The position numbers and the translations under genes are program-made. The notes under the pieces are model-generated. The model was not told the DNA's origin. It did no database searches and saw nothing but the letters and a program-made list of their open reading frames with translations. From a candidate division WOR-3 bacterium (lineage in GTDB: Bacteria; Hydrothermota; Tepidihabitantia; Tepidihabitantales; Tepidihabitantaceae), in NCBI GenBank assembly GCA_965648905.1, contig CBFGIT010000012.1, positions 1 to 64,000 of the forward strand: a DNA stretch of 64,000 bases, in the 5' to 3' direction. Shown here one piece after another: positions 5,727-63,929 of the stretch (positions are counted from its first letter, which is position 1; the number at the start of each line of letters is the position of its first letter).

Positions 5727-5733
5727 TCGGGCA

Positions 5734-27847: not shown

Positions 27848-27890
27848 TGCTTATGGCGCTTTCGGTGATTCAGGAGTCAAGGCCGGCGTT

Positions 27891-27919
27891 TTGACGAAAG
27901 AGCGCTGCTGTGGTATAAT
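27891..27919 (+). promoter_or_regulatory. consensus sigma70 promoter facing an intergenic repeat region
   Basis: TTGACG-N17-TATAAT with TG extension. Confidence 0.65.
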
Positions 27920-28527: not shown

Positions 28528-28582
28528 ATGACAAGGAAGGGGCGGCACAGTGGCCGCCCCGGAGTTGTCCTGGTCTGCCGGG

Positions 28583-29140: not shown

Positions 29141-29149
29141 CTGTCCGGC

Positions 29150-30535: not shown

Positions 30536-30669
30536 TCAGTTCCTCCTGCCTGCCGAGACCGCGGCAAACGGACGGCAGGCGAATTTCTTGTCTGTAGATT
30601 CGGTGGGAGCAGGCTGAGCCTGCTCTATTGCATATTAGGTGAAAAGCCGCCGGAGTCAAGCGGACGGCG

Positions 30670-30698
30670 TTGACTTGGCCCGGGGTGTGACCTAGAAT
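30670..30698 (+). promoter_or_regulatory. sigma70 promoter of the carboxypeptidase, back-to-back with the thiolase promoter
   Basis: TTGACT-N17-TAGAAT; the opposite strand has TTGACT-N16-TAATAT at about 30632-30659. Confidence 0.6.
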
Positions 30699-30810
30699 TA
30701 GATGTGGCTCGGGGCGTCGGGAGCGGTTCGAGGTGCTACGCAACTCCGTCCGGACCCGCCTGTGACAGTCCTACAGTTGATTCTACAAACTCATGACCCG
30801 AGGAGGTCTA

Positions 30811-49164: not shown

Positions 49165-49318
49165 AGTGCATCATATCAGTCTGTCCACGACTGTCAACGC
49201 ACGCGGCGCAGCATCTGGGGATATTCTGCCGAGTTGTGCGGCCAGGAATTCGGGTTGGTTTCATGCCGCATCCTCATGCCGGAACAATGTGCACAGTCAT
49301 GCCGTTCGTCGTTTTTTC

Positions 49319-49346
49319 TTGACATCTGGAGAGTGGTCGCTATTCT
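49319..49346 (+). promoter_or_regulatory. sigma70 promoter of the hydrogenase operon (leaderless)
   Basis: TTGACA-N16-TATTCT, 8 nt before GTG 49355. Confidence 0.6.
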
Positions 49347-49354: not shown

Positions 49355-50386
49355 GTGAGCAGATTCACTCTGCCCATAAAGGCGAGAGACCAGTGGCTCG
49401 GCAAGCTGCTGGAGCGGTTCGCGGTCTTCGTCCCTGTGGTCAGTAAGGACCGCGTGCATTGGCATCGCCTGGTGCCAACTGACCTCGGCAAGGCCGAGGA
49501 TTGTCTGACACCGGCTCTTGTCCGCATCCGAGCGGCAGAGCCGGTGAAGTCTTTTCTGTTCCAGCCGCGTCAGTACGTTGCGTCGATGCCAGCCAGTGAG
49601 ATGCCGGTTGGTGACAAGCCGCGTCTGCTTATCGGGGCGAAGAGTTGTGACCTGGTACCGCTCAAGGTGCACGACCGGATACTGGGTGAAGGTCAGTTCG
49701 CCGACCCGTTCTACAGCGCCGAGCGTCGCCGGACTATGATTATCGCGGCAGACTGCCCAACACCTGAGGATTCCTGTTTCTGCAATCTGCTCGGTGGGCA
49801 ACCGTATGCCCAGGATGGCGTGGATGTGACCCTTGCCGTCGTCGATGGCTGTTATCTGCTGGAGAGCCAGACGCCCGAGGGCGAAGAATTGTTGAATGTC
49901 GACTCGTCCCTGATGCAACCTGCAACTGAAGCACAAATGACAACCAGGACCGATTCCCGCAAGGCCGCAGTTGAGACGCTGGGCCGGCTGAATCCCAAGC
50001 CACTGAATCCCGACCTGCCCAGAGCTGTGGCTGACCGGCTTGGTGATGAGCAGTTCTGGACCAGGCATGCTGCAGGCTGCGTAGAGTGCTATGGTTGTCT
50101 GATGGGGTGCCCTACCTGTTATTGCTTTCTCCTGTATGACAAGGCAAAGGAAGTCGGGTTGGAGCGGACCCGGGTCTGGGACGCGTGTTACGAGGCTGCC
50201 TATGCCCGAGTCGGCGGCGGTGCGAACCCGCGCGCCGAATTCCTCAAGCGGTTCGCCAACCGGTTCGATTGCAAGTTTAGCCAGTTCAAGAACGACCACG
50301 GGTTCTACGCCTGTTCTGGTTGCGGCCGTTGTTTCCGGGCCTGCATGGGCAAGATTGACATCAGAAAGGTGCTGGCCGAGTTGTGA
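49355..50386 (+). CDS. AsrA/sulfhydrogenase-beta-like 4Fe-4S protein
   Basis: GAKSCD, CFC, CVECYGCLMGCPTCYCF, RVWDAC, CSGCGRCFRAC. Confidence 0.88.
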   Translation: MSRFTLPIKARDQWLGKLLERFAVFVPVVSKDRVHWHRLVPTDLGKAEDCLTPALVRIRAAEPVKSFLFQPRQYVASMPASEMPVGDKPRLLIGAKSCDLVPLKVHDRILGEGQFADPFYSAERRRTMIIAADCPTPEDSCFCNLLGGQPYAQDGVDVTLAVVDGCYLLESQTPEGEELLNVDSSLMQPATEAQMTTRTDSRKAAVETLGRLNPKPLNPDLPRAVADRLGDEQFWTRHAAGCVECYGCLMGCPTCYCFLLYDKAKEVGLERTRVWDACYEAAYARVGGGANPRAEFLKRFANRFDCKFSQFKNDHGFYACSGCGRCFRACMGKIDIRKVLAEL

Positions 50387-51198
50387 GCAACCCGTACCAG
50401 CCGATTCCGGCCCGGATTCTCGAGACCCATGACGAGACTTCGAACATCAGAACGTTCAAGCTCAAGCCCGAGCAGGAGATACCGTTTCTCGCCGGCCAGT
50501 TCGTCGAGCTGACCGTGCCCGGATTCGGCGAGGCCCCGTTTACGCCCTCTTCCTCGCATTTCGAGCGCGAGACGTTTGACATGACGATCATGAAGGTCGG
50601 TCGCGCTACCAGTGCATTGTTTGGTCTGAAACCCGGAGACACGGTCGGTGTGCGTGGGCCATATGGGCAGCGCTACCCGTTGGAGAAGTTCGAAGGCAAG
50701 GACATCTACATTGTCGGCGGCGGCGTAGGGCTTGCTCCGCTGCGGGCGCTGTTTCTCGCGCTGGTCCATGAGATTGGCAAGTACCAGCGCATCTTCCTGC
50801 GCTATGGCGCACGTACTCCTCAGGACATTGTCTACAAGCACCTGCTGCCCGAGTGGCAGAAGATTCCCAAAGTCGACATTGACCTGTCGGTCGACGTCAG
50901 TGACGAGAAGTGGATGAAGAAGGTCGGTGTCGTTACCTGCTTGATGGACGAGATACCATGTGACGAGAAGACGAGCATCGCGGTCGTTTGCGGTCCGCCC
51001 ATCATGATGAAGTTTGTGAACCAGAAGCTGCTCGATGCCGGGTTCCAGCCTGAGAACATCTACTTGTCGATGGAGACCAACATGTCCTGTGGCGTGGGTC
51101 AGTGTCGGCATTGCCGGCTTGGGCCGTACTTGACCTGCAAAGACGGGCCGGTCTTGACCTGGGCACAGATAAAGGACATCGAGGAGCCATTCATCTGA
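50383..51198 (+). CDS. AsrB/sulfhydrogenase-gamma-like FAD/NAD(P)-binding 2Fe-2S subunit
   Basis: AGQF, GEAPF, RGPYG, GGGVGLAPLR, CGPP, MSCGVGQCRHC..C.DGPV. Confidence 0.92.
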   Translation: MSNPYQPIPARILETHDETSNIRTFKLKPEQEIPFLAGQFVELTVPGFGEAPFTPSSSHFERETFDMTIMKVGRATSALFGLKPGDTVGVRGPYGQRYPLEKFEGKDIYIVGGGVGLAPLRALFLALVHEIGKYQRIFLRYGARTPQDIVYKHLLPEWQKIPKVDIDLSVDVSDEKWMKKVGVVTCLMDEIPCDEKTSIAVVCGPPIMMKFVNQKLLDAGFQPENIYLSMETNMSCGVGQCRHCRLGPYLTCKDGPVLTWAQIKDIEEPFI

Positions 51199-52835
51199 TG
51201 CAGGCCACGCGTACTACCTGCCCGTTCTGCCTTAACGGCTGTACCGCGGGCGTGGACTGGAACGGCGTCGAACACAAGATGCACTATTTCCCCGACGCCG
51301 AGGTCAATCGGGGCAGGCTTTGTCCTCGCGGCAACAGTGCCAACATCGTTATTGACCACCGCGAGCGATTGTGTCGGCCACAGTTTGACGGGCGGGATAT
51401 CACCTGGCCTGAAGCTGAGGCACTGGTACGTAGCTGGCTTTCGCAGACCAAGCCTGAGGACCTGGCAATCGTCTACAGCCGGGCACGTTCAGTGGGCGAG
51501 GTCCGCCGCATGCACGGCTTGGCGCGGGAGCTGGGTACGCCCAACCTTGTCTGCGGTCACATTGAGCCGGAGAACAGCTTCAACCACCGGCTCGAAGGTG
51601 TCGCCGATGCCACCCTGGCCCAGGTCGAGGCCAGTCGCGCCATGCTGCTCGTTGGAGACGTGTTCAGCACCTCGCCGGTTGCGAGCTGGCGCATTCTCGA
51701 CGCGCGCTATGCTGACCGCAAGAACCGCCTGGTGGTTATCGACTCTATCCGGACGCGGCAGGCTGGGTTTGCTCACATGTTCGTCCAGGTCAAGCCGGGC
51801 ACCGAGCCTCTTGCGCTCGTGGCACTGGCGGCTTTGATTGACCCGAAGGGATTGCCGGGTGTTGACGCGGACCGGTTGGCGAGTGTGGCGGGCACAAGCC
51901 GCGATGCACTCGGCGCGGCCGCGGCGATGCTCAAACCCGAAGTCCCCGGATTCGTCGGTAGCGCGATGCACCCGGGCAGGGCTTTTCATCCGACGCTGCA
52001 CAGTCTTGCAAGTCAGTTGGTTGCCAGAGCCGCGAACAAGCCTTTTATCGGTTTCCGCGAAACCGGTCTGCCGCCTGGGCCGATGCGGTTTGCTGAACTG
52101 CGCAAGGCAATGAGCGAAGGCAGGATCAGGATGCTCTTCTGGACCGGCGGTCTGTTCCCCTATAGCTACTCTGAGTTGCTTCCGGAATTGAGCAAGGTCG
52201 AGCATCTTGTTGCGACGTCGATATTCAGGCCGGACCCGCCGGTGCCGGGTCTAGTCCTGCCCTTGACCGCAGAGCTTGAGCGGGCGTCGGTCGGCAGTTC
52301 CTACTGGGGGCCGGTCGAGCGCTCAGCCCTGGCCTCGCCGCTGAGCGGAACCCGGGAGTTCGGCCAGGTGCTTGACTGGTTCGGCAGAGCGGCGGAGGCG
52401 GACGAGATTCCAGCTAAGCCGGCATCGGTGAGCGAAGTCGTTGTGCTGGCGCAGAAGGCAGCGGGCTTCTTTCGTGATAATGCTGAATGGTTGCTCGTCG
52501 GTGAGAAGAAAGCCATTGGCCTGCGCGGGTTTCATGACCCGGAAGACACCGTGCTCGTCAACCGGTCCGACGCGGCCAGACTGCATGCCAATGACGCCAG
52601 TTTTGTGAAGGTCAAGAGCCTGAGTGCAGAAGTCGAGTTTCGGGTCCACGTGACCGACGCGGTGCCAGCCGGTGTGCTGGCGGTCGGCGTAAATGTGCAC
52701 CGTAACCGCGCCTTGTTCCCACTGGCAGTTGATGAGCTCACCGGCGATGTTACGGTTACGCCGGTTTCGGTGTCGGTTGAGAAGACAGCCCGGGTTCCCA
52801 CGGCTGGGAGCGAGAATCTCTCGGTGTGGTCGTGA
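51198..52835 (+). CDS. molybdopterin-oxidoreductase-fold (NuoG/FDH-like) subunit
   Basis: CPFCLNGC...NRGRLCPRG 4Fe-4S motif and C-terminal molybdopterin-dinucleotide barrel; short (545 aa) with no recognisable Mo-ligand region. Confidence 0.8.
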   Translation: MQATRTTCPFCLNGCTAGVDWNGVEHKMHYFPDAEVNRGRLCPRGNSANIVIDHRERLCRPQFDGRDITWPEAEALVRSWLSQTKPEDLAIVYSRARSVGEVRRMHGLARELGTPNLVCGHIEPENSFNHRLEGVADATLAQVEASRAMLLVGDVFSTSPVASWRILDARYADRKNRLVVIDSIRTRQAGFAHMFVQVKPGTEPLALVALAALIDPKGLPGVDADRLASVAGTSRDALGAAAAMLKPEVPGFVGSAMHPGRAFHPTLHSLASQLVARAANKPFIGFRETGLPPGPMRFAELRKAMSEGRIRMLFWTGGLFPYSYSELLPELSKVEHLVATSIFRPDPPVPGLVLPLTAELERASVGSSYWGPVERSALASPLSGTREFGQVLDWFGRAAEADEIPAKPASVSEVVVLAQKAAGFFRDNAEWLLVGEKKAIGLRGFHDPEDTVLVNRSDAARLHANDASFVKVKSLSAEVEFRVHVTDAVPAGVLAVGVNVHRNRALFPLAVDELTGDVTVTPVSVSVEKTARVPTAGSENLSVWS

Positions 52836-53296
52836 AGCGCATTGTTCTTCGGCTGGACTACTGTATCGGCTGCCGGTCGTGCGAGGCGGCCTGCCGAAGC
52901 CGGTTCAAGGGCGAGGCGAGGATCGGCGTTGCCGAATTGAATTCCACAACCCTGCTCGCCCAGGGCTGCCGCCATTGCGACGAACCGCTGTGTGCGGCGG
53001 CGTGTCCGTTCCAGGTGATTGTCCGTAACCCGGAGACCGGGATTGTACGCAAATCCGACTTCCATTGCGTCGGCTGCCGGTCGTGCACGCTCGCCTGTCC
53101 GTTCGGAGTTATTGAGCCCGGACTTGTGCGTCACATGTCCCAGAAGTGCACCTTGTGCAGCGACCGCCCTGAAGGGCCGCGCTGCGTCACCTCGTGTCCG
53201 ACCGGTGCCCTGCAGTTCGTCGAGGAGCCTGAAAAGCCGGAGAAACGAACCGGAGCCCGCTACTTGTCACGCCATGCCCACTGGAGGAGAACATGA
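52832..53296 (+). CDS. 4x[4Fe-4S] ferredoxin-like subunit (HycB/DmsB type)
   Basis: CIGCRSCEAAC, CRHCDEPLCAAACP, CVGCRSCTLACP, KCTLC...PRCVTSCP. Confidence 0.9.
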   Translation: MKRIVLRLDYCIGCRSCEAACRSRFKGEARIGVAELNSTTLLAQGCRHCDEPLCAAACPFQVIVRNPETGIVRKSDFHCVGCRSCTLACPFGVIEPGLVRHMSQKCTLCSDRPEGPRCVTSCPTGALQFVEEPEKPEKRTGARYLSRHAHWRRT

Positions 53297-54222
53297 TTGG
53301 CTGGACCGGGTGGAAGCTCGCATTCGCTTTCCTTGTGTTCCCGGGCTTTCTGTTCAGCGCCGTGGTCGGCATGGTGCTGACCTGGGTTGACCGGTTTGTG
53401 TCGGCTCGGGTCCAGTGGCGCAAAGGGCCGCCGTTCTATCAGCCGTTCGCGGACTTTCTGAAGCTGATGCTCAAGCAGACTGTCGTGCCTGACGGGGCAG
53501 CCCGGACCACTTTCCTGCTCGCACCGCTGCTCGGCCTGGTGGCGATGTGCCTGACCGCAGTGATGCTGTTCTACGCCAACTTCTTCCCGTACATATCTTT
53601 TGCCGGCGACCTGATTGTGCTGGTGTACCTGTTCGCGCTGCCGCCGCTGGCGCTGATACTCGGGGCGTCGGCATCGCGGAACCCTCTGTCTGCGGTCGGG
53701 GCTTCGCGTGAGATGACGCTCTACCTCGGATACGAACTACCGTTTCTCTTGGCGCTTGCCGTGCCGGTCATCAGGAGCCATGGAGCGTTTCGCATCGGTG
53801 ACCTCGTGCTCGCTCAGCAGGCTTCGGGGCCTTTCCTTAATTCGATATCCGGCGTTATCGCCGCCGTCATCGTCCTGATTTGCATTCAGGCCAAACTTGG
53901 GTATCCTCCGTTCGACATTGCTGAAGCTGAACAGGAAATCATGTCCGGAGTACTGATTGAATACTCGGGCGCGCCGCTGGCCGCGTTCCGGCTGGCGCGG
54001 GCGATGATGCTTCTACTGCTGCCCTTGTTTCTTGTTACTCTCTTCTGGGGCGGGTTGGTGAGCTGGTGGGCGGTTCTTAAGTTTCTACTCGTTGTCGTCT
54101 TGGTTGTGCTCATCAAGAACACCAATCCGAGGCTCAAGATTGACCACGCGCTGCGGTTCTTCTGGTTGATACTCGCGCCGCTGGGCGTGGCGGCGGTGGT
54201 TCTGGCGTTCGCAGGACTATGA
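53293..54222 (+). CDS. hydrogenase membrane anchor (NuoH/MbhM/HycD family)
   Basis: RKGPPFYQPFADFLKL, PFDIAEAEQE, EYSG, NPRLK. Confidence 0.92.
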   Translation: MIGWTGWKLAFAFLVFPGFLFSAVVGMVLTWVDRFVSARVQWRKGPPFYQPFADFLKLMLKQTVVPDGAARTTFLLAPLLGLVAMCLTAVMLFYANFFPYISFAGDLIVLVYLFALPPLALILGASASRNPLSAVGASREMTLYLGYELPFLLALAVPVIRSHGAFRIGDLVLAQQASGPFLNSISGVIAAVIVLICIQAKLGYPPFDIAEAEQEIMSGVLIEYSGAPLAAFRLARAMMLLLLPLFLVTLFWGGLVSWWAVLKFLLVVVLVVLIKNTNPRLKIDHALRFFWLILAPLGVAAVVLAFAGL

Positions 54223-54635
54223 AAGACGCGCGCATCTGGGGTCTGAAGAAGTCGCCGTGGGTGTATCACCTGGCCGCAGCACCGTGTAACAACTGCGACA
54301 TCGAGATACTGGAGCTTCTGACCCCGCGCTACGACGTCGAGCGGTTTGGAGTTGTACTCGTGGGCTCGCCGCGTCATGCCGATGCGCTGCTCGTGACCGG
54401 TGTGCTGAATCGCAAGTCCCTGCCTCGGGTGCTCGAAGTCTACGAGCAGACACCGAAGCCCTGTCTCGTGATCGGCATCGGTACGTGCGCCTGCGGCAAG
54501 CAGATTTTCCGCAATTCCTACAATGTCGTTGGTCCATATGACAAGTACATGCCGGTGCACGCGTACATCCCGGGCTGTCCGCCCAAGCCTGAAGCAATGC
54601 TGCTCGGGGTTGTGAAGGCGTTGAGTAAGCTATGA
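54219..54635 (+). CDS. group 4 [NiFe]-hydrogenase small subunit (NuoB/MbhJ family)
   Basis: CNNCDIE, SPRHAD, GTCA, PGCPPKP. Confidence 0.92.
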   Translation: MKDARIWGLKKSPWVYHLAAAPCNNCDIEILELLTPRYDVERFGVVLVGSPRHADALLVTGVLNRKSLPRVLEVYEQTPKPCLVIGIGTCACGKQIFRNSYNVVGPYDKYMPVHAYIPGCPPKPEAMLLGVVKALSKL

Positions 54636-55084
54636 GAGAAGCCGAAGCCAAGCTGAAGCAGCTCGTACCAGTGGCCGACGTGTACGAGCACAATCCGCGG
54701 CGGCTGTACATTAGGATACCGCGCGAGCGGCTGACCGAAGCAGCCAAGTTGCTGCACCGGGAGTTTGGCATGCGGCTCTCGATCTGCACCGGCATCGACA
54801 CCCGCGACGGGTTCGAGGTGCTGTATCACTTTTCGGACGACAAGGCCGGGACGATGTACACGCTTAAGGTTCTGGCGCCGAAAGATGACCCGCGGATTGA
54901 ATCGCAGGCGACCTGGTTTCCGGCCGCAGATTGGATTGAGCGTGAGATGCACGAGCTCCTCGGCATCGAATTCCCGGGACACCCCAATCTGATACCTCTG
55001 CTAACATCCGACGCCGACTGGGAAGGCGGCAAGTACCCGCTGCGACGGGATTACGAGCGCAGGAACGAGGCTCATGAGCGATAG
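54632..55084 (+). CDS. NuoC/MbhK family subunit
   Basis: EVLYHF, ADWIEREMHELLGIEFPGHP, YPLRRD. Confidence 0.9.
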   Translation: MREAEAKLKQLVPVADVYEHNPRRLYIRIPRERLTEAAKLLHREFGMRLSICTGIDTRDGFEVLYHFSDDKAGTMYTLKVLAPKDDPRIESQATWFPAADWIEREMHELLGIEFPGHPNLIPLLTSDADWEGGKYPLRRDYERRNEAHER

Positions 55085-56252
55085 GCGCATCGTCCCGATC
55101 GGTCCGTATCACCCGCTACAGGAGGAACCGGAGTTTTTCAAGCTGATTGTCGAGGGCGAGAAGGTCGTGGACCTGGAGATAAACCTTGGCTACAATCATC
55201 GGGGGCATGAGTTCATCTCGCCTGAGCTGACCTACGACCAGATCCCGTTCCTGGTCGAGCGGATCTGCGGCATTTGCTCAAACTCCCATCCGCTTGCCTG
55301 CGTGCTGGCGGTCGAGGATTGTGCCGGCATCAAACCGCCACCCCGGGCCGACTACATTCGTTCGATTGTGCATGAGCTGGAGCGGATTCACTCGCACCTG
55401 CTCTGGGTCGGGCTGGCCGGCCACTTCATCGGCTACAACACGGTCTGGATGTGGGCATGGCGGTACCGCGAACACATTCTTGAGGTGTTCGAGATGATTA
55501 CCGGCAACAGGAACCACTACGCGGCGAACAAGCCGGGCGGCGTCAGGCGCGATATCAAGCCCGAGCAGGTTCCGCAGATACTTGCGGCATTGGACTTGGC
55601 CGAAAAGAAGACGATGATGCTGACCAAAGCGGTACTCGACGACCCGGTCATCCGCTCGCGCCTTGAGGGTGTGGGGGTGTTGACCCGTGAGCAGGCGATT
55701 GCCTATTCGGTTACCGGGCCGACGGCTCGTCCGTCGGGCGTCGACATCGACGTGCGGCGCGACGACCCGCACGCCGCCTATGACAAGGTGCCATGGAACG
55801 TCATCGTGCTGACCGAGGGTGACGTGTTCGCCAAGGCCAAGGCGCGGCTTCTGGAGATATTCGAGTCGGTCAAGATCATCAGGGCCTGTCTTAAGGACAT
55901 GCCGGACGGGCCAATTGAGACGAGGATTGACGAAGTGCCGCCGGGCGAGGGCATCGGTCGCACTGAAGCGCCAAGGGGTGAGGTGTTCCACTACATTCGA
56001 TCTGACGGGACGAACCGGCCCCTGCGACACAAGGTGCGGGCACCAAGCTACATGAACATCGCCTCGAATGTGGTTGCTGTGCGAGGCGGCTCGATTGCCG
56101 ACGCGGCCCTGACTCTGGCCGCAGTCGATCCGTGCTACTGCTGCACCGAGCGCATGGCCGCCTTTGAGAATGGACGGCTGAAGTACTCGGGCAAGGACCT
56201 ACTTCGGCTGTCGTGGCAGAGAACCGAGTCCCTGAAAGGCAGGTTCAAGTGA
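55074..56252 (+). CDS. group 4 [NiFe]-hydrogenase large subunit
   Basis: Both Ni-binding motifs intact (ERICGICS and DPCYCCTER); EAPRGE; C-terminal extension. Confidence 0.93.
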   Translation: MSDRRIVPIGPYHPLQEEPEFFKLIVEGEKVVDLEINLGYNHRGHEFISPELTYDQIPFLVERICGICSNSHPLACVLAVEDCAGIKPPPRADYIRSIVHELERIHSHLLWVGLAGHFIGYNTVWMWAWRYREHILEVFEMITGNRNHYAANKPGGVRRDIKPEQVPQILAALDLAEKKTMMLTKAVLDDPVIRSRLEGVGVLTREQAIAYSVTGPTARPSGVDIDVRRDDPHAAYDKVPWNVIVLTEGDVFAKAKARLLEIFESVKIIRACLKDMPDGPIETRIDEVPPGEGIGRTEAPRGEVFHYIRSDGTNRPLRHKVRAPSYMNIASNVVAVRGGSIADAALTLAAVDPCYCCTERMAAFENGRLKYSGKDLLRLSWQRTESLKGRFK

Positions 56253-57484
56253 GTTTCGGGGGCTGGTTCGAGTTCACCGGTGGGGCAATCCATGGCTATG
56301 TCGCAGCCGTGTTCTGCCTGGTTGGCGCGGCTGCGCTGCTGTATTCCCTGGTACGGCTGCGTGGTCGAGGTGCCGGGCTGGTTGAGTACACCGTCTTCTT
56401 GCTCCTGCTTGTTGTGAGTGCGCTCGGCGTGGTCTACGCGCAGAACCTGGTTGTGGTCTTTGCCCTGTGGGAGATTGCTACCTTCGCGCTTTGGCGTCTG
56501 GTCGCCTTTTTCCGGTCCGACGACGACGTGAACGCCGGTGCCTGGGCCTGGTACGTTAACTTCGGCGCCGCGGCAATGATGCTCGTGGGGCTGGCGCTGA
56601 TTCTCGTCGAGAACGGCAGCCTGAACTTCGGCGCGCTGCGTGGTCAGGAAATCACCTGGGCACCGGCCGTGCTCATCTTCATCGGCATTCTCGCTAAGTC
56701 CGCCACTCTGCCGTTGCATGTCTGGCTGCCCAGAGCGTACCGGGCTGCGCCGGCGCCGGTGTGTGCTTTGCTCTCCGGCGTTGCCGAGAACCTTGGTGTC
56801 GTGCTGTTTCTGAAGCTGTTTGTTGCCGCCATGATTCCACCCGTTGGGTTCATGGAAATGGTCGCGGTGCTGGCACTGGTCTCGAGCCTTATGGCCGGCG
56901 GCTTGGCGCTTCAGTCCGGTTCGCTGCGATCAGTGCTTGCTTACTCAACAATCGGGCAGCTTGGATTCATATTCCTGGGGCTGGCGCTGACCGGCTACTA
57001 CGGCCTGCTTGGTGCACTCACCTACCTTGCAGCCCATGCGGTCGCCAAGTCGGGACTCTTCTTCGCCGTGGGCGCGGTTGAAGACGCGACCGGGAAAGTG
57101 GAGCTTCAGGATCTTGGCGGGATGTACCGTAGGGCCCCGGTCCTGGCCGGAGCCACGGGGATGCTGGTGCTTTCGATTGTCGGGCTGCCACCCTTCCTGG
57201 GTTTCTTTGCCAAGCTCGGGGTACTGATTGCCGCGGTCCGGCACAGCCTGGTGCTCGGCCTTGTGGCGGTAGCCGCGGCGCTGTTCACCGTGCTCTACCT
57301 GGCGCGGTTCTATTCTCGCGTCTTCCTCGGCTCGGCGCCCGAACACGAGCTGCAGCCGGTCGGTCTGACTCCCACCGCCATCGCGGTTGTAATGGCGGCG
57401 GTCTCGCTGGCAGCGGGCATTTTCTACTACTTGTCGGTTGGCGTTCTTGAGAAGGGTGTGACTTCTCTCGCCGGGGTAATCTGA
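56249..57484 (+). CDS. antiporter-like membrane subunit (NuoL/M/N, MrpD family)
   Basis: FALWEIAT, KSATLPLHVWLP, LAYSTIGQ, GLPPFLGFFAK. Confidence 0.88.
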   Translation: MSFGGWFEFTGGAIHGYVAAVFCLVGAAALLYSLVRLRGRGAGLVEYTVFLLLLVVSALGVVYAQNLVVVFALWEIATFALWRLVAFFRSDDDVNAGAWAWYVNFGAAAMMLVGLALILVENGSLNFGALRGQEITWAPAVLIFIGILAKSATLPLHVWLPRAYRAAPAPVCALLSGVAENLGVVLFLKLFVAAMIPPVGFMEMVAVLALVSSLMAGGLALQSGSLRSVLAYSTIGQLGFIFLGLALTGYYGLLGALTYLAAHAVAKSGLFFAVGAVEDATGKVELQDLGGMYRRAPVLAGATGMLVLSIVGLPPFLGFFAKLGVLIAAVRHSLVLGLVAVAAALFTVLYLARFYSRVFLGSAPEHELQPVGLTPTAIAVVMAAVSLAAGIFYYLSVGVLEKGVTSLAGVI

Positions 57485-59385
57485 TGCATCCCTTTCTGCT
57501 GATCATACTCATTCCGGTTGCCGCGGGGCTGCTCGGATATCTCGCCGGCCGTTTGCGCAATGAGTTCAGCTTCATCGGTGCGGTCATCACGCTCTACTAC
57601 GCGGTGCGGCTGTTCTTCCAGTCACGCCACAGCGTGCTGATGCTTGAACCCGCGGCCACGGCCGGGATACCGATTGCCTTCCGGCTCGACGCGCTCTCGG
57701 GGTTCCTGTTGCTGTTCATTGCGGTTTTTGCCGTCCTGGTGATGGTGTTCTCCTTCCGCTACATGAAGGGCCGTGACGGTCTGCGCGGCTACTATCTGTA
57801 CATGCTCTTGGCCCTGGCATGCGCGAACGGCGTGGTCCTGGCTGCGAACCTGGTCGTGTTGTTGTTCTTCTGGGGTGCGATGCTCGCGGTTGTCTACGGG
57901 CTGCTCCTTGTCGGCCGGCAGGGTTCGGAGGCGGTCGCCACCAAGGCTCTGGTGTTGGTCGGCCTGTCGGATTTCCTAATGCTTGCCGGCATTGCCTTGC
58001 TGGTGCGAAGCAACTGGATCGATCTTGTGCCGGCCGTGCCCATGGCTTTGCACCAGCCGATGAATGTTGCCGCGTTCCTGCTCATTGTGGCTGGCGCTCT
58101 TGCCAAGGCCGGCTCGATGCCGTTCCACTCCTGGATTCCGGCAGCAGCAGAAACTGCTCCGGCCACGGTAATGGCCTATGTCCCGGCCTCGCTCGACAAG
58201 CTGCTTGGTATCTACCTGCTGACGCGACTGGCGACCTACATGTTCGACATCGGAGGCAACATCGCGGTCAAGAACAGTTTGATGGCGATCGGGTCGGTCA
58301 CGATTCTCGGCGCGGTGATGATGGCCTTGGTGCAGAAGCGGGTGATGAAGCTGCTTTCGTTTCACGCCGTCTCGCAGGTCGGCTACATGGTTCTGGGAAT
58401 TGGGACCGGCATTCCGGTCGGGATTGCCGGGGGGCTGTTTCACATGCTGAACCACGCCATTTACAAGGCCGGCCTCTTCTTGTCTGCGGGTTCGGTGGAG
58501 CACTGGGCCAGGACCGATGAGATTGACAGGCTCGGTGGCGTGGCTGGCCAGATGCCCGTCACTTTCCTATCCTTCCTGGTGTGCGCCATGGCCATCTCAG
58601 GGGTACCGCCGCTCAATGGATTTGCCTCAAAATGGATGGTGTATCAGGGAGTGATTGGAGCCGGACGCGACGGCAATGGGCTGGCCGTAGTTTTTCTGGT
58701 CTGCGCCATGCTTGGCAGCGTGCTGACCCTGGCTTCCTTCCTAAAATTGCTGCACTCGATGTTTTTCGGCCAGCGGCCCGACGGGCTGGCCAAGGTTCGC
58801 GAGGTCGGGTTCGCCATGTGGCTGCCGCCGGCGGTGCTGGCGGCATTGTGCGTTGTGTTCGGAATTGGTGCCTGGCAGTTGCCCCTGCGTGGGTTCATCT
58901 ATCCGAGCCTGCCGATGTTGATTGAAGTGCCGGGAGTCTGGCAGCCGCTGCTCGTCACTCTGCTGATGCTCGTGGCGCTGGCGCTGGGCGTGATTGTGTA
59001 CCTGCTGGGCACGGGCACGAAGCCGGTGGCAGCTCGGACGTTCGTTGGCGGAGAGAGGATTGCCGACAACGAAGAGAGTCGCGTGACCGGCACGGCATTC
59101 TATTCACCGGTCAAGCACCTGCCGATTCTGGACGACCTGCTCAGGTTCGGTGGCTCCGGTTCTTTCGACCTGTACAACTGGCTGGTCGGTGCCGCACACG
59201 GTCTGGCCGCGGTGTTCCAGGGCCTGGTTGAAGACGTGCTGCAGTTGCTTTACCGCGCACTTGGTCTGCTTACTGCGGCAGCCGGGCGGTTGCTCTCCAG
59301 TCTGTCAACCGGCAGCCTGCCCCTCTACGTCGCCTGGGTTTTCATTGGCGGAATGGTGTTCTTTCTGGTGTTGATGCTGAGGTAG
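57484..59385 (+). CDS. antiporter-like membrane subunit with long C-terminal extension (NuoL/MrpA-like)
   Basis: KAGSMPFHSWIP, FHAVSQVGY, HAIYK, GVPPLNGFASKW; C-terminal amphipathic helix + TM. Confidence 0.88.
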   Translation: MHPFLLIILIPVAAGLLGYLAGRLRNEFSFIGAVITLYYAVRLFFQSRHSVLMLEPAATAGIPIAFRLDALSGFLLLFIAVFAVLVMVFSFRYMKGRDGLRGYYLYMLLALACANGVVLAANLVVLLFFWGAMLAVVYGLLLVGRQGSEAVATKALVLVGLSDFLMLAGIALLVRSNWIDLVPAVPMALHQPMNVAAFLLIVAGALAKAGSMPFHSWIPAAAETAPATVMAYVPASLDKLLGIYLLTRLATYMFDIGGNIAVKNSLMAIGSVTILGAVMMALVQKRVMKLLSFHAVSQVGYMVLGIGTGIPVGIAGGLFHMLNHAIYKAGLFLSAGSVEHWARTDEIDRLGGVAGQMPVTFLSFLVCAMAISGVPPLNGFASKWMVYQGVIGAGRDGNGLAVVFLVCAMLGSVLTLASFLKLLHSMFFGQRPDGLAKVREVGFAMWLPPAVLAALCVVFGIGAWQLPLRGFIYPSLPMLIEVPGVWQPLLVTLLMLVALALGVIVYLLGTGTKPVAARTFVGGERIADNEESRVTGTAFYSPVKHLPILDDLLRFGGSGSFDLYNWLVGAAHGLAAVFQGLVEDVLQLLYRALGLLTAAAGRLLSSLSTGSLPLYVAWVFIGGMVFFLVLMLR

Positions 59386-59388
59386 TGA

Positions 59389-59937
59389 ATGACTGAGTCT
59401 TACGTCCTGCTGGCCGCGATGCTTGCCGCCGCCATTGTGGCAATCGAGATCAATGACCTGCTGGCTGCGGCCGTGGCACTGGGCATCGTCGGGTTCAGCG
59501 TGGCGATCATGTTCATCCTGCTGCAGGCTCCGGACCTGGCAATCGTCCAGATTGCGGTTGAGGTGCTTACCGTGGTTTTCTTTGCCGCGGTCATTCTGCG
59601 GACGACCAACATTGATACGACAATTGCTGAGCCTTTCAAGCGCGAGCTTGTGCTACCGACCGTCGTTTTCGCCGCGTTTGGGACATTTCTGCTCGTGCTG
59701 GCCGGTATGGTGCTGCGTGAGTTGCCGCCACTTGGCAGTCCGACCATGATGGTGGCAAGTCAGTACATTCTACACGGTCTGGAGCGCACCGGAGCGGCAA
59801 ATGTCGTTGCTGCGATTATCCTGGACTTCCGTGGTTACGATACCCTCGGTGAGGCGACCGTGCTCTTCACTGCCGTTGTCGGCGTGCTGACCGTCATGAG
59901 GCGTTCGGGTCGGAAGTCGGCAGGAGAGGGAGCATAG
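59389..59937 (+). CDS. MbhD/MbhE-like fusion (DUF4040 + MnhB N-part)
   Basis: APDLAIVQIAVE; NVVAAIILDFRGYDTLGEATVL. Confidence 0.88.
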   Translation: MTESYVLLAAMLAAAIVAIEINDLLAAAVALGIVGFSVAIMFILLQAPDLAIVQIAVEVLTVVFFAAVILRTTNIDTTIAEPFKRELVLPTVVFAAFGTFLLVLAGMVLRELPPLGSPTMMVASQYILHGLERTGAANVVAAIILDFRGYDTLGEATVLFTAVVGVLTVMRRSGRKSAGEGA

Positions 59938-59939
59938 CG

Positions 59940-60380
59940 ATGCGTGGCATGTCGACGATTGTCCAGGTAGTTGCCCACCTGCTTGCCGGCCTGCTGTTTC
60001 TGTATGGTGTCTACATCGTTCTCCACGGCCACCTCACGCCGGGCGGCGGTTTTGCCGGTGGTGTGCTGATTGCCGCGGCTTTCATACTTATGTCGCTGGC
60101 CTTTGGTTCGGTCGAGCAAGCCGAGAAGAGCTCCTACACATTCTCCTCGATCTTCGAGAGCCTGGGCGGGGTAGCATTTGTCGTTCTGGCCCTGACCGGG
60201 CTGATTGCCTGCGGCTATTTCTTCAAGAATGAGCTCGTATACTACACCGGGGTACCATTGCATCTGGTTTCCGGTGGTATCATCCTGCCAGCCAATGTCG
60301 CTATCGGCATCAAGGTCGGGGCCGGACTGGTGGCGATATTCCTGGCCCTCGGCGCATCCCGGTTCGTGATGAAGGACTAG
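59940..60380 (+). CDS. MnhB/MbhF family subunit
   Basis: HGHLTPGGGFAGG, IGIKVG. Confidence 0.9.
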   Translation: MRGMSTIVQVVAHLLAGLLFLYGVYIVLHGHLTPGGGFAGGVLIAAAFILMSLAFGSVEQAEKSSYTFSSIFESLGGVAFVVLALTGLIACGYFFKNELVYYTGVPLHLVSGGIILPANVAIGIKVGAGLVAIFLALGASRFVMKD

Positions 60381-60382
60381 GC

Positions 60383-60721
60383 ATGATAGCACTGATGGCC
60401 TGCGTTCTGCTTCTGCTCATCGGTCTGTACGCGGTCGTGGCCAAGCGTAACCTCATTAGGATCATCATCGGCTTCAGCCTGATTGAGTATGCCGTCAACC
60501 TGCTGTTTGCGTTGATTGGGTTCAAGAAGGGAGCACTGCCGCCGATTATCACGGACCTGACCCAGACGCGAAACTTCGTCGACCCGGTACCTCAGGCGCT
60601 GGTGCTGACTGCCATTGTCATCGGCCTGTCGACGACCGCATTGATGCTCGCCTTGGCGATGCGTGTCTATGAGAAGTACAGGACATTCGACATCACCGAA
60701 ATCCGGAGGCTCAAAGGCTGA
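60383..60721 (+). CDS. MnhC/MbhG family subunit
   Basis: DPVPQALVLTAIVIG. Confidence 0.92.
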   Translation: MIALMACVLLLLIGLYAVVAKRNLIRIIIGFSLIEYAVNLLFALIGFKKGALPPIITDLTQTRNFVDPVPQALVLTAIVIGLSTTALMLALAMRVYEKYRTFDITEIRRLKG

Positions 60722-62226
60722 TGAACTCACGCCTGTTACCGCTGTTCGTCGTTACGCCGATGCTGGCCGCGTTCCTCACGCCACTGCTTTCGAAGGTCTG
60801 GTCGAGATTCGGGGACCTGCTGGCCAATCTTGCCGGGGCGGTACTGCTCGGCCTCTCAACCATGGGCGTAGCCACGCTGCTTGGCAGCTCACAGCCACTG
60901 ATTCATCGCGTGGGAGGCTGGTTGCCGGCAGTCGGCATAACGCTGGTCTACGACCCACTGACCGCGCTTGTGGCACTTGCCCTGAATGCAGTCGGGTTTG
61001 CTGCCCTGCTCTACTCGGTTCGTTACCTCGACCACTATACCGGCCGCTGGAAGTTCTACACGCTGTTCATGCTGATCCTTGCTGGTCTGAACGGCGTGGT
61101 TATGACCGGCGACATGTTCAACCTGTTTGTGTTCATGGAAGTCGCGGCGGTGGCGTCGTATGCTCTGGTTGCGTTCGGGACTGACTTTGACGAACTCGAG
61201 GCCGGGTTCAAGTACATGGTCATCGGCGAGGTCGGCGGCTTCTCGATACTGCTGGCCATCGCGCTGCTCTATGCCAAGGTTTCGAGCCTGAACATGGCGG
61301 TCGTGTCCCAGGTGCTGGTAGCGCAGGGACAATCGCCTTTGTTCTGGTTCATTGTCGTCCTGTTCCTTATCGGGTTCGCGGTGAAGATGGCGATGGTGCC
61401 GTTCCATGCTTGGCTGCCCGATGCCCACCCTTCTGCTCCGGCGCCGGTGTCAGCCGTACTCTCGGGCGTGTTCATCAAGGTACTGGGGGTGTATGCGATG
61501 TCGCGCCTGATGTTCAACGTTTTCGGGCTCTCTCGTGCCAGCTCGCCCGAGTTTTTCAACCTGCTGCTCGGGTTCGGCCTGCTCTCGATTACTGTTGGCG
61601 GGCTGTTGGCCTACAACCAGAGAGACTACAAGCGGCTGCTTGCCTATTCGTCCATCAGTCAGATCGGCTACGTCCTCATTGGCTTCGGTATCGGCAACTA
61701 TTGGGGAATTGTCGGGGCGCTATTTCATATTGTTGCTCATGCGCTGGGCAAAGGGGTGCTGTTCCTGGCTGCGGGCGCGGTTGAGCGTCAGACCGGCACG
61801 CGCGACCTGAGCAAGCTCGCCGGCCTGGAAAAGTCGATGCCGGCCACAACCTGGTCTCACATTCTCGGCTCGCTTTCGCTTTCCGGCGTGCCGCCGTTTG
61901 CCGGGTTTTTCTCCAAGCTGTTCATTGTCATTGGCGCAGTCTCGGCCCAAATGCACTGGCTGGCGGTCGTTGCTGCGCTGTTCTCAGTCGTGACGCTCGG
62001 GTACCTGACCAAAGTCGTGAACCGTTCGTTCTTTGCCCGACCGGGTGCGACTTTGACCCCGGCGCGCGAGGCGCCGGCAACGATGGTGGCGGCGATGCTG
62101 CTGCTCGTCGTCCTGTCCCTGCTATTCGGTCTGGGTTTCAAGCCGACGCTCGACTGGTTCGTCGGTCCGGCAGCACAGGTTCTGACCAACGGGCTTGAGT
62201 ATGCCCGGTTTGTACTGGGAGGGTAG
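60721..62226 (+). CDS. MnhD/MbhH antiporter subunit
   Basis: DMFNLFVFMEV, PFHAWLPDAHPSAP, KRLLAYSSISQIGY, GVPPFAGFFSK. Confidence 0.92.
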   Translation: MNSRLLPLFVVTPMLAAFLTPLLSKVWSRFGDLLANLAGAVLLGLSTMGVATLLGSSQPLIHRVGGWLPAVGITLVYDPLTALVALALNAVGFAALLYSVRYLDHYTGRWKFYTLFMLILAGLNGVVMTGDMFNLFVFMEVAAVASYALVAFGTDFDELEAGFKYMVIGEVGGFSILLAIALLYAKVSSLNMAVVSQVLVAQGQSPLFWFIVVLFLIGFAVKMAMVPFHAWLPDAHPSAPAPVSAVLSGVFIKVLGVYAMSRLMFNVFGLSRASSPEFFNLLLGFGLLSITVGGLLAYNQRDYKRLLAYSSISQIGYVLIGFGIGNYWGIVGALFHIVAHALGKGVLFLAAGAVERQTGTRDLSKLAGLEKSMPATTWSHILGSLSLSGVPPFAGFFSKLFIVIGAVSAQMHWLAVVAALFSVVTLGYLTKVVNRSFFARPGATLTPAREAPATMVAAMLLLVVLSLLFGLGFKPTLDWFVGPAAQVLTNGLEYARFVLGG

Positions 62227-62715
62227 GTGGCGCGGCGTCTGGCGTACTTCCTGCTTGGTCTGGTGTTCTACATAGTGCTGGTATGGTCATTCCAGGTTGA
62301 GGAATTGATTGCTGCCGGCGCGGCAGCACTGCTCACTGCGTTGGTGTTTGGCAAACACCTGCCGATTGAGCCGGCCCGACTGCTTTCTCCCCGGCGTTGG
62401 CTCTGGCTGCTGATGTACGTCCCGGTCTTCGCGTATCAGTGCCTGAAGTCGAACATCGACGTCGCGCTGCGCGTGCTTTCGCCCGGTCTGCAAATCAAGC
62501 CCGGAATCGTTCGAATACGCACAACACTCAAGAGCGACGTGGCGCGGGTGTTTCTGGCGAACTCGATTACGTTGACGCCCGGAACGATGACAGTGGAGAT
62601 ACGGGACGACCTGCTCTACATCCACTGGATCGAGGTCGGCTCGGACGACCCGGTTGCTGCGGCAAAGAGGATCATCGGGCCGTTTGAGTTCTTCCTGTCG
62701 AGGATATTCGACTGA
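62227..62715 (+). CDS. MnhE/MbhA family subunit
   Basis: PGIV, LANSITLTPGT, LYIHWI. Confidence 0.92.
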   Translation: MARRLAYFLLGLVFYIVLVWSFQVEELIAAGAAALLTALVFGKHLPIEPARLLSPRRWLWLLMYVPVFAYQCLKSNIDVALRVLSPGLQIKPGIVRIRTTLKSDVARVFLANSITLTPGTMTVEIRDDLLYIHWIEVGSDDPVAAAKRIIGPFEFFLSRIFD

Positions 62716-62969
62716 TGACGATACTGATTGTCTTTCTTTCCTTCGGAGCGTTTTTCTGTCTGTACCGGGCACTCAAGGGGCCTTCGATACCGGACCGTGC
62801 GATTGCTGTCGACATCATGTCGGTCATTTTCACCAGCATCACAGCGCTGATGGCGCTGCAGTACAAGCTCGCGTTTCTCATCGACCTGTCGATCGCGCTG
62901 GCAATAATCTCTTTCATCGGCAGTCTGGCGCTGGCCAAGTATCTTGAAGGAAGGAGCCTAGATGATTAG
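62715..62969 (+). CDS. MnhF/MbhB family subunit
   Basis: GPSIPDRAIAVD, AKYLE. Confidence 0.9.
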   Translation: MTILIVFLSFGAFFCLYRALKGPSIPDRAIAVDIMSVIFTSITALMALQYKLAFLIDLSIALAIISFIGSLALAKYLEGRSLDD

Positions 62970-63315
62970 CGTTGTCGGCTGGCTGTTCCTTGGTACTGGT
63001 GTCGGATTTACCCTGCTCGGCTGCCTGGGACTGGTTCGGTTCCCGGACCTTTACAACCGCATGCAGGCCGCGACGAAGTGCGTCACTCTCGGCACATGTG
63101 GCATCCTTTTCGGCGTCTTTCTGATGTCCGGATTCACCGCGCTCGGCGTCAAGGCGCTGGTCTGCGCGCTGTTCGTGCTCATTACCGTGCCGGTGGCAGC
63201 CCATGCCTTGGCGCGCGGCTCACTCATTTTCGGCGTCAGGCTCTGGAAAGACACGGTCAAGGACGAGTTCACCGACGACCGGGGTGGTGAGTCGATCATT
63301 GAGGGGAGAAAATGA
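62962..63315 (+). CDS. MnhG/MbhC family subunit
   Basis: RFPDLYNRMQAATK, PVAAHALAR. Confidence 0.92.
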   Translation: MISVVGWLFLGTGVGFTLLGCLGLVRFPDLYNRMQAATKCVTLGTCGILFGVFLMSGFTALGVKALVCALFVLITVPVAAHALARGSLIFGVRLWKDTVKDEFTDDRGGESIIEGRK

Positions 63316-63929
63316 GAATACCCCTGCCTAAGCTGCGTGAGCTGGTTGAAGCGGTCCGGGCAGTGGTCAAGGGGCCGTACACGACCAGGTTCCCGGCCAG
63401 GGTTGACTCGGTTCACCCCAACTTCCGTGGTCTGCTCAAGTTCGATTCCGACAAATGTATCTGCTGCGGTGCCTGCACCCGGGTCTGTCCGCCCCGTGCC
63501 CGCGAAATCGTATTCGACCGGGACAAAGGCGTCATTCGCAACGTTCACCACGCGGAGCGGTGCATCTACTGCGGTCAGTGCGTGCTCTACTGCACAACTC
63601 GTGAGGGCATCTACCACTCGACCGAGTTCGACGCGGCCCGGACCGAACGCAGTCCGGACTGGGAGACATCGGTCGAGAAGGAAGCCGCAATCTGCGAAAT
63701 CTGTGGTGAGGCATTTGCTTCCAAGGCGCACCTGCTTTGGATTGCGCACAGGGTCGGCGACCTTGCCAATTCAAACCCGACGTTGTTTCTCTCGTTGTAC
63801 CAGGAACTCGGCACTGCTGAGCCGCGTCCGCCGCGCGGCGACCCGGTTCCTTATCGGTCAGATACCGTGCGTATCCTGTGTCCTGAATGTCGACGCAAGA
63901 CGTACCTGACCGAGCAGTGGGGCTACTGA
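63312..63929 (+). CDS. NuoI/MbhN-like 2x[4Fe-4S] subunit with extra CxxC...CxxC tail
   Basis: FRG, CICCGACTRVCP, CIYCGQCVLYC, CEICG...CPECRR. Confidence 0.9.
   Translation: MRIPLPKLRELVEAVRAVVKGPYTTRFPARVDSVHPNFRGLLKFDSDKCICCGACTRVCPPRAREIVFDRDKGVIRNVHHAERCIYCGQCVLYCTTREGIYHSTEFDAARTERSPDWETSVEKEAAICEICGEAFASKAHLLWIAHRVGDLANSNPTLFLSLYQELGTAEPRPPRGDPVPYRSDTVRILCPECRRKTYLTEQWGY

Follow-up and report, generated by a model that had tools for sequence, protein, structure and literature searches.

A candidate division WOR-3 operon predicted to encode a group 4 [NiFe]-hydrogenase with a complete Mrp set, a formate hydrogenlyase-like arm and a sulfhydrogenase-like subunit pair

Introduction

An 'enigmatic' group 4 [NiFe]-hydrogenase was described in 2019 by Matheus Carnevali et al. 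from Saganbacteria RX5A, whose gene cluster combines Mrp antiporter-like subunits with a molybdopterin protein not identifiable as a formate dehydrogenase and with cooF-, asrA- and asrB-like genes; its authors suggested that the extra genes form an oxidoreductase module, and guessed at a function like that of the membrane-bound hydrogenase (MBH) (PMC6349859). A 'Mbh-Mrp-oxidoreductase type', the oxidoreductase function of which is stated by its authors to be unknown, was described in Elusimicrobia by Meheust et al. in 2020 (bioRxiv 10.1101/765248), and the subgroups described in HydDB include the Mrp-linked 4b and 4d as well as an unknown 4g. Here we analyze an 18-gene operon (positions 49355-63929, forward strand) within a 64,000-nucleotide stretch of DNA from a candidate division WOR-3 bacterium (the window; positions 1 to 64,000 of contig CBFGIT010000012.1, assembly GCA_965648905.1), which is a WOR-3 member of this genomically known hydrogenase type.

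Going by the published descriptions, the operon and the Saganbacteria/Elusimicrobia type share the same parts: asrA- and asrB-like genes, an unclassifiable MopB protein, a cooF-like gene, group 4 subunits, NuoC/H/I homologues and Mrp subunits. The arrangement, to which an earlier note made from the DNA sequence alone had drawn attention, was already in print for both lineages (PMC6349859; bioRxiv 10.1101/765248). As described, RX5A has two Mrp antiporters, two further membrane subunits and a recognizable molybdopterin domain, whereas the window encodes three antiporter-like subunits together with MrpB, C, E, F and G and has no PF00384 match. The operon goes unmentioned in the covered parts of the WOR-3 literature, namely the isolate paper, the methanogenic-bioreactor paper and Baker 2015 (PMC4411801).

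No biochemically characterized complex was found to match the operon gene for gene. MBH from Pyrococcus furiosus (PDB 6CFW, HydDB group 4d) provides the best solved relative of the large subunit and shares the MbhA-H and MbhJ-N homologues as well as the Mrp-type Na+ module, but it has one antiporter-like subunit, uses free ferredoxin as donor and differs in gene order; relative to its 14 subunits, the operon has six extra genes (four soluble, two antiporter-like), and a separate MbhI was not detected in the operon with Pfam or NCBIfam. Formate hydrogenlyase (FHL) of E. coli (FdhF-HycBCDEFG; PDB 7Z0S/7Z0T, group 4a) contributes the best matches of two iron-sulfur subunits (HycB and HycF), the second match of the large subunit (HycE) and rank 2 in the Foldseek search with the MopB model (FdhF); it has, however, a single antiporter-like subunit and neither small Mrp subunits nor a module for NAD(P)H, while the operon is without its selenocysteine (Sec)-His pair and formate chemistry. 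The β and γ subunits of P. furiosus sulfhydrogenase I (PDB 9NEZ, group 3b) share Cys motifs and FAD, NAD and 2Fe-2S domains with the first two products of the operon, but serve a soluble group 3b hydrogenase, whereas the operon pair is encoded with a membrane-bound group 4 enzyme. MbsH' of the P. furiosus membrane-bound sulfane reductase (MBS; PDB 6U8Y) resembles the 633-residue subunit of the operon, but MBS no longer has its Ni ligands, and its antiporter-like subunits number two. Hydrogenase 4 of E. coli (Hyf), of which we know of no structural characterization, contains Ni and, by NCBIfam names, three antiporter-like subunits (B, D and F), but has neither Mrp small subunits nor an NAD(P)H module.

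The N-module of complex I (NuoE/F/G) offers a parallel in outline, in that an NAD(P)H flavoprotein and a MopB subunit without catalytic residues lead through an Fe-S wire to a NuoB/D/I/H core with three antiporter-like subunits. In contrast, the MopB of the operon is nearer to FdhF than to NuoG and is without the N-terminal cluster domains of the latter, and the predicted enzyme retains an intact Ni site and has no site for quinone; Pfam scans identified no NuoE or NuoF homologue in the operon or the window. The resemblance is thus a parallel and not membership. The reading preferred here, which we put forward tentatively, is that a peripheral arm resembling that of FHL, in which a degenerate FdhF is the scaffold, connects the NAD(P)H/NAD(P)+ couple to the Ni-Fe site and that electron transfer is coupled to Na+/H+ movement.

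Results

Operon and hydrogenase core

The region between 49355 and 63929 contains 18 intact forward-strand open reading frames (ORFs), with consecutive genes spaced by −11 to +3 nucleotides (nt), in agreement with the co-directional, overlapping operon described in the earlier note. Each product also belongs to the family named there (Pfam, NCBIfam): the AsrA/AsrB-like, polyferredoxin, NuoH/B/C/D/I and MnhB/C/E/F/G identities all stand, and a fused MbhD+MbhE is added to them. With E-values as low as 1e-89, and with synteny in each of the 19 related loci, chance can be set aside.

All partner subunits of a group 4 enzyme (NuoD-, NuoB-, NuoC-, NuoI- and NuoH-type; PF00346, PF01058, PF00329, a NuoI-type ferredoxin and PF00146) are encoded in this one forward-strand operon. 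They comprise a NuoH/HycD/MbhM-like membrane anchor with eight hydrophobic segments (53293-54222; 309 amino acids (aa); PF00146, 5e-63); a NuoB/HycG/MbhJ-like small subunit, the translation of which contains the Cys of CNNC, GTC and GCPP (54219-54635; 138 aa; PF01058, 1e-25); a NuoC/MbhK-like subunit (54632-55084; 150 aa; PF00329, 5e-27); the [NiFe]-hydrogenase large subunit with both CxxC pairs (55074-56252; 392 aa; PF00346, 1e-67; PF00374, 2e-15); and a NuoI/HycF/MbhN-like 2x[4Fe-4S] subunit (63312-63929; 205 aa; NCBIfam PRK12387, the FHL iron-sulfur subunit, 2e-20), which is the product of the last operon gene and does not adjoin the NuoD homologue.

The large subunit carries the Ni-ligand motifs RICGICSNSH and DPCYCCTER, kept in 13 of 13 aligned large subunits, and a conserved C-terminal extension of about 32 aa follows the second CxxC motif in all 13 aligned sequences. 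An extension of like kind is seen in the alignment with HycE, where it is removed by the HycI protease; and in the version of the locus carried by a Dehalococcoidia metagenome-assembled genome (MAG; locus L019), a HycI-family gene (positions 11569-12030; PF01750, 4e-14) lies directly after the NuoI-like gene. On account of the two CxxC pairs, the HycE-like extension and this HycI gene, the operon is predicted to encode a genuine group 4 [NiFe]-hydrogenase, as the earlier note had proposed. A Ni-less enzyme of the Ehr/Mbx type was rejected, all four Ni-ligand Cys being kept.

Among solved chains, which provide the only proxy for its subgroup, the large subunit is closest to MbhL (6cfw_L; 2.5e-80, 274 bits), followed by HycE (7z0s_E; 1.9e-72, 248 bits), Nqo4 (8e-58, 200 bits) and MbsL (1e-48, 169 bits). 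The best of the NuoI-type PDB chains for the last operon product is HycF (7z0s_F, 2e-11), followed by MbhN (1e-8) and MbsN (3e-8). The large-subunit ranking and the mixed nature of the parts lend no support to the idea that the enzyme is an evolutionary intermediate between these complexes; judged by their sequences, the parts resemble a mosaic drawn from modules of MBH/Mrp, FHL and sulfhydrogenase.

Membrane arm

As previously noted, three antiporter-like subunits are encoded at 56249, 57484 and 60721. The first (56249-57484; 411 aa; PF00361, 1e-51) is without about the first three helices, and its alignments to MrpA, MrpD and MbhH begin at their residues 80-112; it nevertheless keeps the Glu of transmembrane helix (TM) 5 and the Lys of TM7 and TM12 in 10 of 10 sequences each, with the TM8 Lys replaced by Asn in 8 of 10. 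The second, of MrpA-N/MbsH'/HycC type with a C-terminal extension (57484-59385; 633 aa; PF00361 (Proton_antipo_M), 5e-45; PF00662), matches NCBIfam PRK08668 over residues 4-545 (5e-80) and, among PDB chains, MbhH (1e-46), MrpA (1.5e-43), MbsH' (1e-35) and HycC (1e-30). Its TM7 and TM8 Lys are present in 12 of 12 sequences and its TM12 Lys in 11 of 12, but the TM5 Glu, otherwise strictly conserved, is found in none of the 12 (Gly in nine, Asn in two, Ser in one); HycC has the reverse pattern, with the Glu kept and the Lys lost (PMC9474812). The third, of MrpD/MbhH type (60721-62226; 501 aa; PF00361, 5e-67; NCBIfam PRK08376, 1e-111), has the TM5 Glu and the TM7, TM8 and TM12 Lys in 11 of 11 sequences.

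The remaining membrane genes encode a fused MbhD+MbhE that corresponds to the MrpA C-terminal part, residues about 600-790 (59389-59937; 182 aa; PF13244, 5e-15; PF20501, 5e-10), and MnhB/MrpB/MbhF-like (59940-60380; 146 aa; PF04039, 4e-24), MnhC/MrpC/NuoK/MbhG-like (60383-60721; 112 aa; PF00420, 1e-26), MnhE/MrpE/MbhA-like (62227-62715; 162 aa; PF01899, 1e-37), MnhF/MrpF/MbhB-like (62715-62969; 84 aa; PF04066, 2.5e-13) and MnhG/MrpG/MbhC-like (62962-63315; 117 aa; PF03334, 2e-23; TIGR01300, 92 bits, above the cut-off of 63) proteins. The fused MbhD+MbhE completes the Mrp set, in which A is divided between two genes and B to G are all present, and with the one extra, N-terminally truncated subunit the antiporter-like subunits come to three.

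According to the counts given in PMC8165549, H+ units number two in MBH, three in MBS and in Mrp and four in complex I, including one composite path each, so that MBH has one antiporter-like subunit, MBS two and complex I three. By its gene content, the predicted complex of the operon equals complex I and exceeds MBS. The earlier note, which had credited MBS with three such subunits, was therefore wrong on that point, and its description of a pumping arm of MBS/complex-I size holds for complex I but not for MBS. Nor is the combination of a Ni site with several antiporter-like subunits unheard of: it occurs in Hyf, and extra antiporters together with a lateral helix have been modelled for an Asgard group 4 enzyme (PMC11291895).

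Peripheral arm

The operon begins with relatives of the sulfhydrogenase β and γ subunits. The first gene (49355-50386) encodes a HydB/ShyB/AsrA-like iron-sulfur subunit of 343 aa (Fer4_22, 3e-22; NCBIfam ShyB, 3e-38, HydB, 6e-33, and AsrA, 3e-27, each under its curated cut-off), whose single PDB match is P. furiosus sulfhydrogenase I β (9nez_B, 2e-31) and in which 16 Cys columns are invariant among 12 orthologues. The second (50383-51198) encodes a HydG/AsrB-like flavoprotein of 271 aa with FAD-binding (PF00970), NAD-binding (PF00175) and 2Fe-2S (PF10418) domains, best matched by sulfhydrogenase I γ (9nez_C, 3e-51) and then by PyrK and NfnA-type proteins. The sulfhydrogenase-type domain set is hence complete, with FAD, NAD and 2Fe-2S domains in γ and multiple Cys cluster motifs in β. 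The scores nonetheless lie under the NCBIfam equivalog cut-offs for HydB/HydG and ShyB/ShyC (132 bits against 690, 181 against 600), and the two predicted proteins are relatives of the β/γ pair, not equivalogs. Homology thus upholds the pyridine-nucleotide module claimed in the earlier note and the cut-offs do not; the operon likely has an NAD(P)(H) module.

The third gene (51198-52835), which starts at ATG 51198 with a 1-nt overlap with the stop codon of the HydG-like gene, encodes a 545-aa MopB subunit of the FdhF fold with an FS0 [4Fe-4S] motif. In the Pfam scan it matched PF04879 and PF01568 only, and PF00384 was not matched. The sequence CGHIEP lies opposite CARL(Sec)H of a formate dehydrogenase (9t1s_L) within a gapless stretch, so that Glu-Pro replaces Sec/Cys-His; among 18 orthologues, Glu-Pro is present in 16 and Cys/Sec-His in none, and all four FS0 Cys are retained in every one. 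An AlphaFold model built from 14 sequences (pLDDT 83.8, pTM 0.88) has a compact MopB fold, for which Foldseek ranked FDH1 first (7vw6_A) and FdhF in FHL second (7z0t_A; query-normalized TM-score (TMq) 0.76), with Nap also among these matches (TMq 0.74-0.76) and NuoG of mycobacterial complex I at rank 19 (8e9g_G; TMq 0.68). Identity as NuoG proper was rejected: formate dehydrogenase chains match at 1e-29 against 2.6e-5 for Nqo3, and the N-terminal domains of NuoG are absent. The known relics NuoG and QrcB match weakly.

Alignment and model together show a putative MopB protein with the formate dehydrogenase/NuoG fold minus the formate dehydrogenase active site. The earlier note had called this subunit cofactor-less; the fold it named stands, but loss of the cofactor does not follow, as what is absent is the Sec/Cys-His pair and the PF00384 match only.

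The fourth gene (52826-53296) encodes a HycB/HydN/CooF-like ferredoxin of 156 aa (Fer4_11, 2e-18) with four CxxC...CP motifs in its translation, whose best PDB match is FHL subunit 2, HycB (7z0s_B, 5e-19). With this, the predicted peripheral arm matches that of E. coli FHL chain for chain: FdhF-fold MopB, HycB-like subunit, HycF-like subunit, small subunit and Ni-Fe site.

Evolution of the MopB subunit

Across lineages, no product is less conserved than MopB, which shows 24-32% identity in loci L014-L018 compared to 68-75% for the large subunit and 60-64% for HydG. Such low conservation fits a scaffold better than a catalytic subunit, and the FS0 Cys kept in 18 of 18 orthologues fit a relay role. 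The MopB lineage of the window and that of loci L016-L018 both occur in genomes named WOR-3; the two are only 24-28% identical, while the large subunits that go with them are 74-75% identical, which implies very uneven rates inside one operon.

In a MopB profile search of 1.84 billion representatives, 4102 sequences matched at E<=0.001, of which 101 reached E<=1e-30. Of the top 150 matches, 126 are 400 aa or longer; Glu-Pro occurs in 20 of these and the canonical Cys-His in 14, one is a fragment, and the other 91 show neither motif. Short MopB proteins (about 500-620 aa) that have the FS0 Cys and are without Cys/Sec-His thus form a large family, which from these alignments looks like one of degenerate MopB proteins; no published description of it was found in the literature covered. 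The size of this family, together with the low conservation, leans towards a non-catalytic role. As an unconfirmed lead, a language-model neighbour of MopB (score 0.97, 527 aa, Aquificota) carries the automatic name 'NADH-dependent fumarate reductase subunit C'; if the name is true, an NADH-linked enzyme would offer a precedent for a small subunit of MopB type.

A rather unlikely alternative is that MopB is a working Mo/W enzyme for an unidentified substrate, with the invariant Glu possibly acting as metal ligand; this would make the complex a 'substrate hydrogenlyase' comparable to Fdh-Mfh-Mnh of Thermococcus, and the β/γ pair a second outlet to NAD(P)+. The full MopB fold (TMq about 0.75 to FdhF and Nap) is compatible with this, as are the many invariant residues retained in DxxRT...PGTE-type motifs, which are typical of pterin-binding MopB enzymes, and PF00384 is still weakly detectable (E<=1) in 9 of 14 relatives; the retention of Glu-Pro in 16 of 18 orthologues, moreover, suggests a function at that spot, and the Saganbacteria homologue is reported to have molybdopterin domains (PMC6349859). 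Against a catalytic MopB stand the absence of Cys/Sec-His in 18 of 18 orthologues, its position as the fastest-evolving subunit of the operon and the 91 of 126 relatives with neither motif (20 having Glu-Pro), which look like a degenerate family. In addition, we know of no MopB enzyme in which Glu serves as metal ligand.

Conservation of the locus

A one-genome-per-species scan with the MopB alignment yielded 37 loci, which were searched by tblastn with all 18 window proteins. In 19 related loci (L001-L019), mostly from candidate division WOR-3, the operon is found in the same order as far as the contig reaches, so that the AsrA/AsrB, MopB, group 4 and Mrp arrangement singled out by the earlier note recurs in 19 of 19. 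HydG precedes MopB in all 19, with HydB upstream in 17 and the remaining two cut by the contig end; HydN follows MopB in all 16 loci long enough to include it, the hydrogenase core comes next in all 15 that extend past HydN, and the large subunit is seen in 14, which are all that reach its position. Variation is found in the membrane arm: L014 is without the truncated and the MrpD-type antiporter-like subunits, and L019 is without the truncated subunit and most small Mrp subunits. The other 18 loci (L020-L037) have ordinary MopB genes, with a β-subunit-like gene nearby in 14 and a hydrogenase in none.

Among the 120 MopB matches listed, 23 are named, 17 as 'candidate division WOR-3' and six as plain 'bacterium'; the 120 large-subunit matches listed are all at least 75% identical and come from WOR-3 plus one Latescibacteria record. 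In the second MopB lineage, of the L017 type, the records bear WOR-3 names, those of the original estuary bins among them, except for one that is named TA06. WOR-3 genomes have been described as those of peptide/polymer fermenters with Ni,Fe-hydrogenases (PMC4411801).

The stop/start overlaps, and a gene order that holds in 19 loci, make it probable that the first four genes share a transcript with the remainder of the operon. It is conceivable, but very improbable, that they encode an independent soluble oxidoreductase linked to NAD(P)H, which would have no more than its transcript in common with a ferredoxin-dependent Mbh-Mrp hydrogenase of the ordinary kind. FdhF is loosely bound in E. coli FHL and lost on purification, which makes loose association plausible (PMC9474812); however, the four genes are joined to the core by stop/start overlaps and precede it in all 15 loci that extend past HydN, even where MopB is 24-32% identical, and a HycB-like subunit makes little sense without its HycF-like partner.

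Genomic context

The first ORF is open from 49166, and an alignment of 12 orthologues places the conserved N-terminus at GTG 49355. A consensus scan located a promoter-like site (TTGACA-16-TATTCT, 10 of 12 matches) at 49319-49346 on the forward strand, 9 nt 5' of this start codon, from which a transcript would be near-leaderless; five such sites were found against 2.9 expected, making this weak evidence. A second σ70-like site, with 11 of 12 matches, lies at 49170-49197 on the reverse strand, back-to-back with the first in a 190-nt gap; the two end 6-9 nt 5' of their respective start codons, and both transcripts would be nearly leaderless. The divergent gene (48325-49164, reverse strand) starts at 49164 and has no Pfam match. 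A divergent DUF1893 (TM1506) gene lies directly upstream of the operon in 3 of the 10 loci examined (L006, L011 and L012); a conserved upstream partner was rejected, as upstream genes vary among the 10.

The window stops 71 nt past the last stop codon of the operon, and the 10-kb flanks of the WOR-3 loci stop short of the operon end. A scan of 49 window ORFs, 18 of the operon and 31 lying upstream of it, detected no hyp or hycI maturation gene, and tblastn with the HycI of L019 found no further copy in the 37 loci or the window, as far as the loci reach.

Farther upstream, a run of large secreted proteins with Por_Secre_tail or FlgD_ig domains occupies 15744-33063 and includes a BNR-repeat protein, β-propellers, an S8 subtilase and an M14 carboxypeptidase; an M6 peptidase is encoded at 5566-7398. 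The domain content of these secreted peptidases fits type IX secretion and a protein-degrading lifestyle. At 1450-3668, a baeRF (release-factor-like) family 10 protein stands beside a phage-type integrase, possibly the edge of a mobile or defence element.

Discussion

If, as tentatively preferred here, the operon encodes an FHL-like arm linked to NAD(P)H, its γ-like flavoprotein would exchange hydride with NAD(P)H/NAD(P)+, and electrons would pass from the clusters of the β-like subunit to FS0 of MopB, the HycB-like and HycF-like subunits, the small-subunit clusters and finally the Ni-Fe site, a path paralleled by the FHL relay FdhF-HycB-HycF-HycG-HycE (PMC9474812). MopB would have lost formate chemistry and serve mainly as scaffold or relay, comparable to the MopB relic of NuoG in complex I, and the Mrp arm would couple turnover at the Ni-Fe site to the movement of Na+/H+. 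In a WOR-3 cell that lives by fermentation and protein degradation, such a complex would most plausibly spend ion-motive force to dump NAD(P)H electrons as H2; where H2 is plentiful, it would reverse and conserve a little energy. As an alternative for the large arm, part of it may act as a Na+/H+ exchanger, as proposed for MBH. Consistent with this scheme are the family and structure matches of all 18 products, the retention of most key charged residues of the three antiporter-like subunits, and the fermenter genomes of WOR-3 (PMC4411801) together with the many secreted peptidases in the window.

Several points weigh against this assignment, and the first is energetic. At standard potentials of −320 and −414 mV, electrons from NAD(P)H have to climb about 94 mV to form H2, and the direction from H2 to NAD(P)+ yields roughly 18 kJ per electron pair by the same potentials. 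Ion pumping along four paths is more than so small a span can drive, and the size of the arm therefore needs the reverse-flow or the antiporter reading. The 633-residue subunit, with its TM5 Glu lost in all 12 sequences, may not transport at all. Use of NAD(P)H is argued from homology to sulfhydrogenase γ, and with NCBIfam scores well under the equivalog cut-offs the partner could differ. MopB, given its PF00384 traces and pterin-type motifs described above, may have a bound Mo/W cofactor, and its small size is no obstacle in kind, FwdB and FwdD together being about as small. It is from synteny only that the first four products would be placed on the core. Finally, a literature search, with subscription journals outside its scope, found no biochemical study of any member.

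The same energetic point bears on a different and unlikely explanation, in which ferredoxin is the main donor as in MBH and the four soluble subunits supply a branch to NAD(P)+. Ferredoxin, NAD(P)H and H2 would on this view meet in a three-way hub, which would do the job of Rnf plus a hydrogenase and pump ions during electron transfer from ferredoxin to H+ or NAD(P)+. For the Saganbacteria cluster, a Mbh-like function was the published guess, in line with this view (PMC6349859). The span from ferredoxin to either acceptor would suit a large pumping arm better than that from NAD(P)H to H+, and the core is closest to the ferredoxin-dependent MbhL; in addition, L014 and L019, with fewer antiporter-like subunits, keep the same soluble module, so that arm size is not set by the module. 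Ferredoxin, in MBH, has its docking site on MbhN. The NuoI homologue of the operon, on the other hand, is HycF-like and expected to be capped by the HycB-like subunit (cf. PMC9474812), and Pfam scans detected neither a ferredoxin gene nor a ferredoxin-producing oxidoreductase in the operon.

The sharpest new points of this analysis are the chain-for-chain likeness of the predicted arm to FHL, the strict retention of Glu-Pro at the former Sec-His site, the fast evolution of MopB and the systematic absence of the TM5 Glu from the subunit of MrpA type. A broader proposal, which is possible but doubtful, is that WOR-3 and neighbouring candidate phyla independently built an analogue of the NADH input of complex I on a Ni-containing MBH/Mrp chassis, a degenerate FdhF-type MopB scaffold and a sulfhydrogenase-type flavoprotein replacing NuoG and NuoEF, respectively, with a reversible, ion-gradient-driven NAD(P)H:H+ oxidoreductase as the result.

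The known routes by which NAD(P)H electrons are released as H2 are confurcating hydrogenases and very low H2 pressure. If ion coupling between NAD(P)H and H2 is true, it would add a third for anaerobes: fermenters would vent NAD(P)H electrons as H2 without ferredoxin or confurcation, at the high ion-per-electron gear set by three antiporter-like subunits. The independent origin of such an input, if true, would make the complex a living parallel to the acquisition of the NADH module by complex I. As the operon is common to many uncultured sediment and hot-spring bacteria (WOR-3, TA06, the Latescibacteria record and the Dehalococcoidia MAG), its function bears on models of H2 flux in anoxic sediments.

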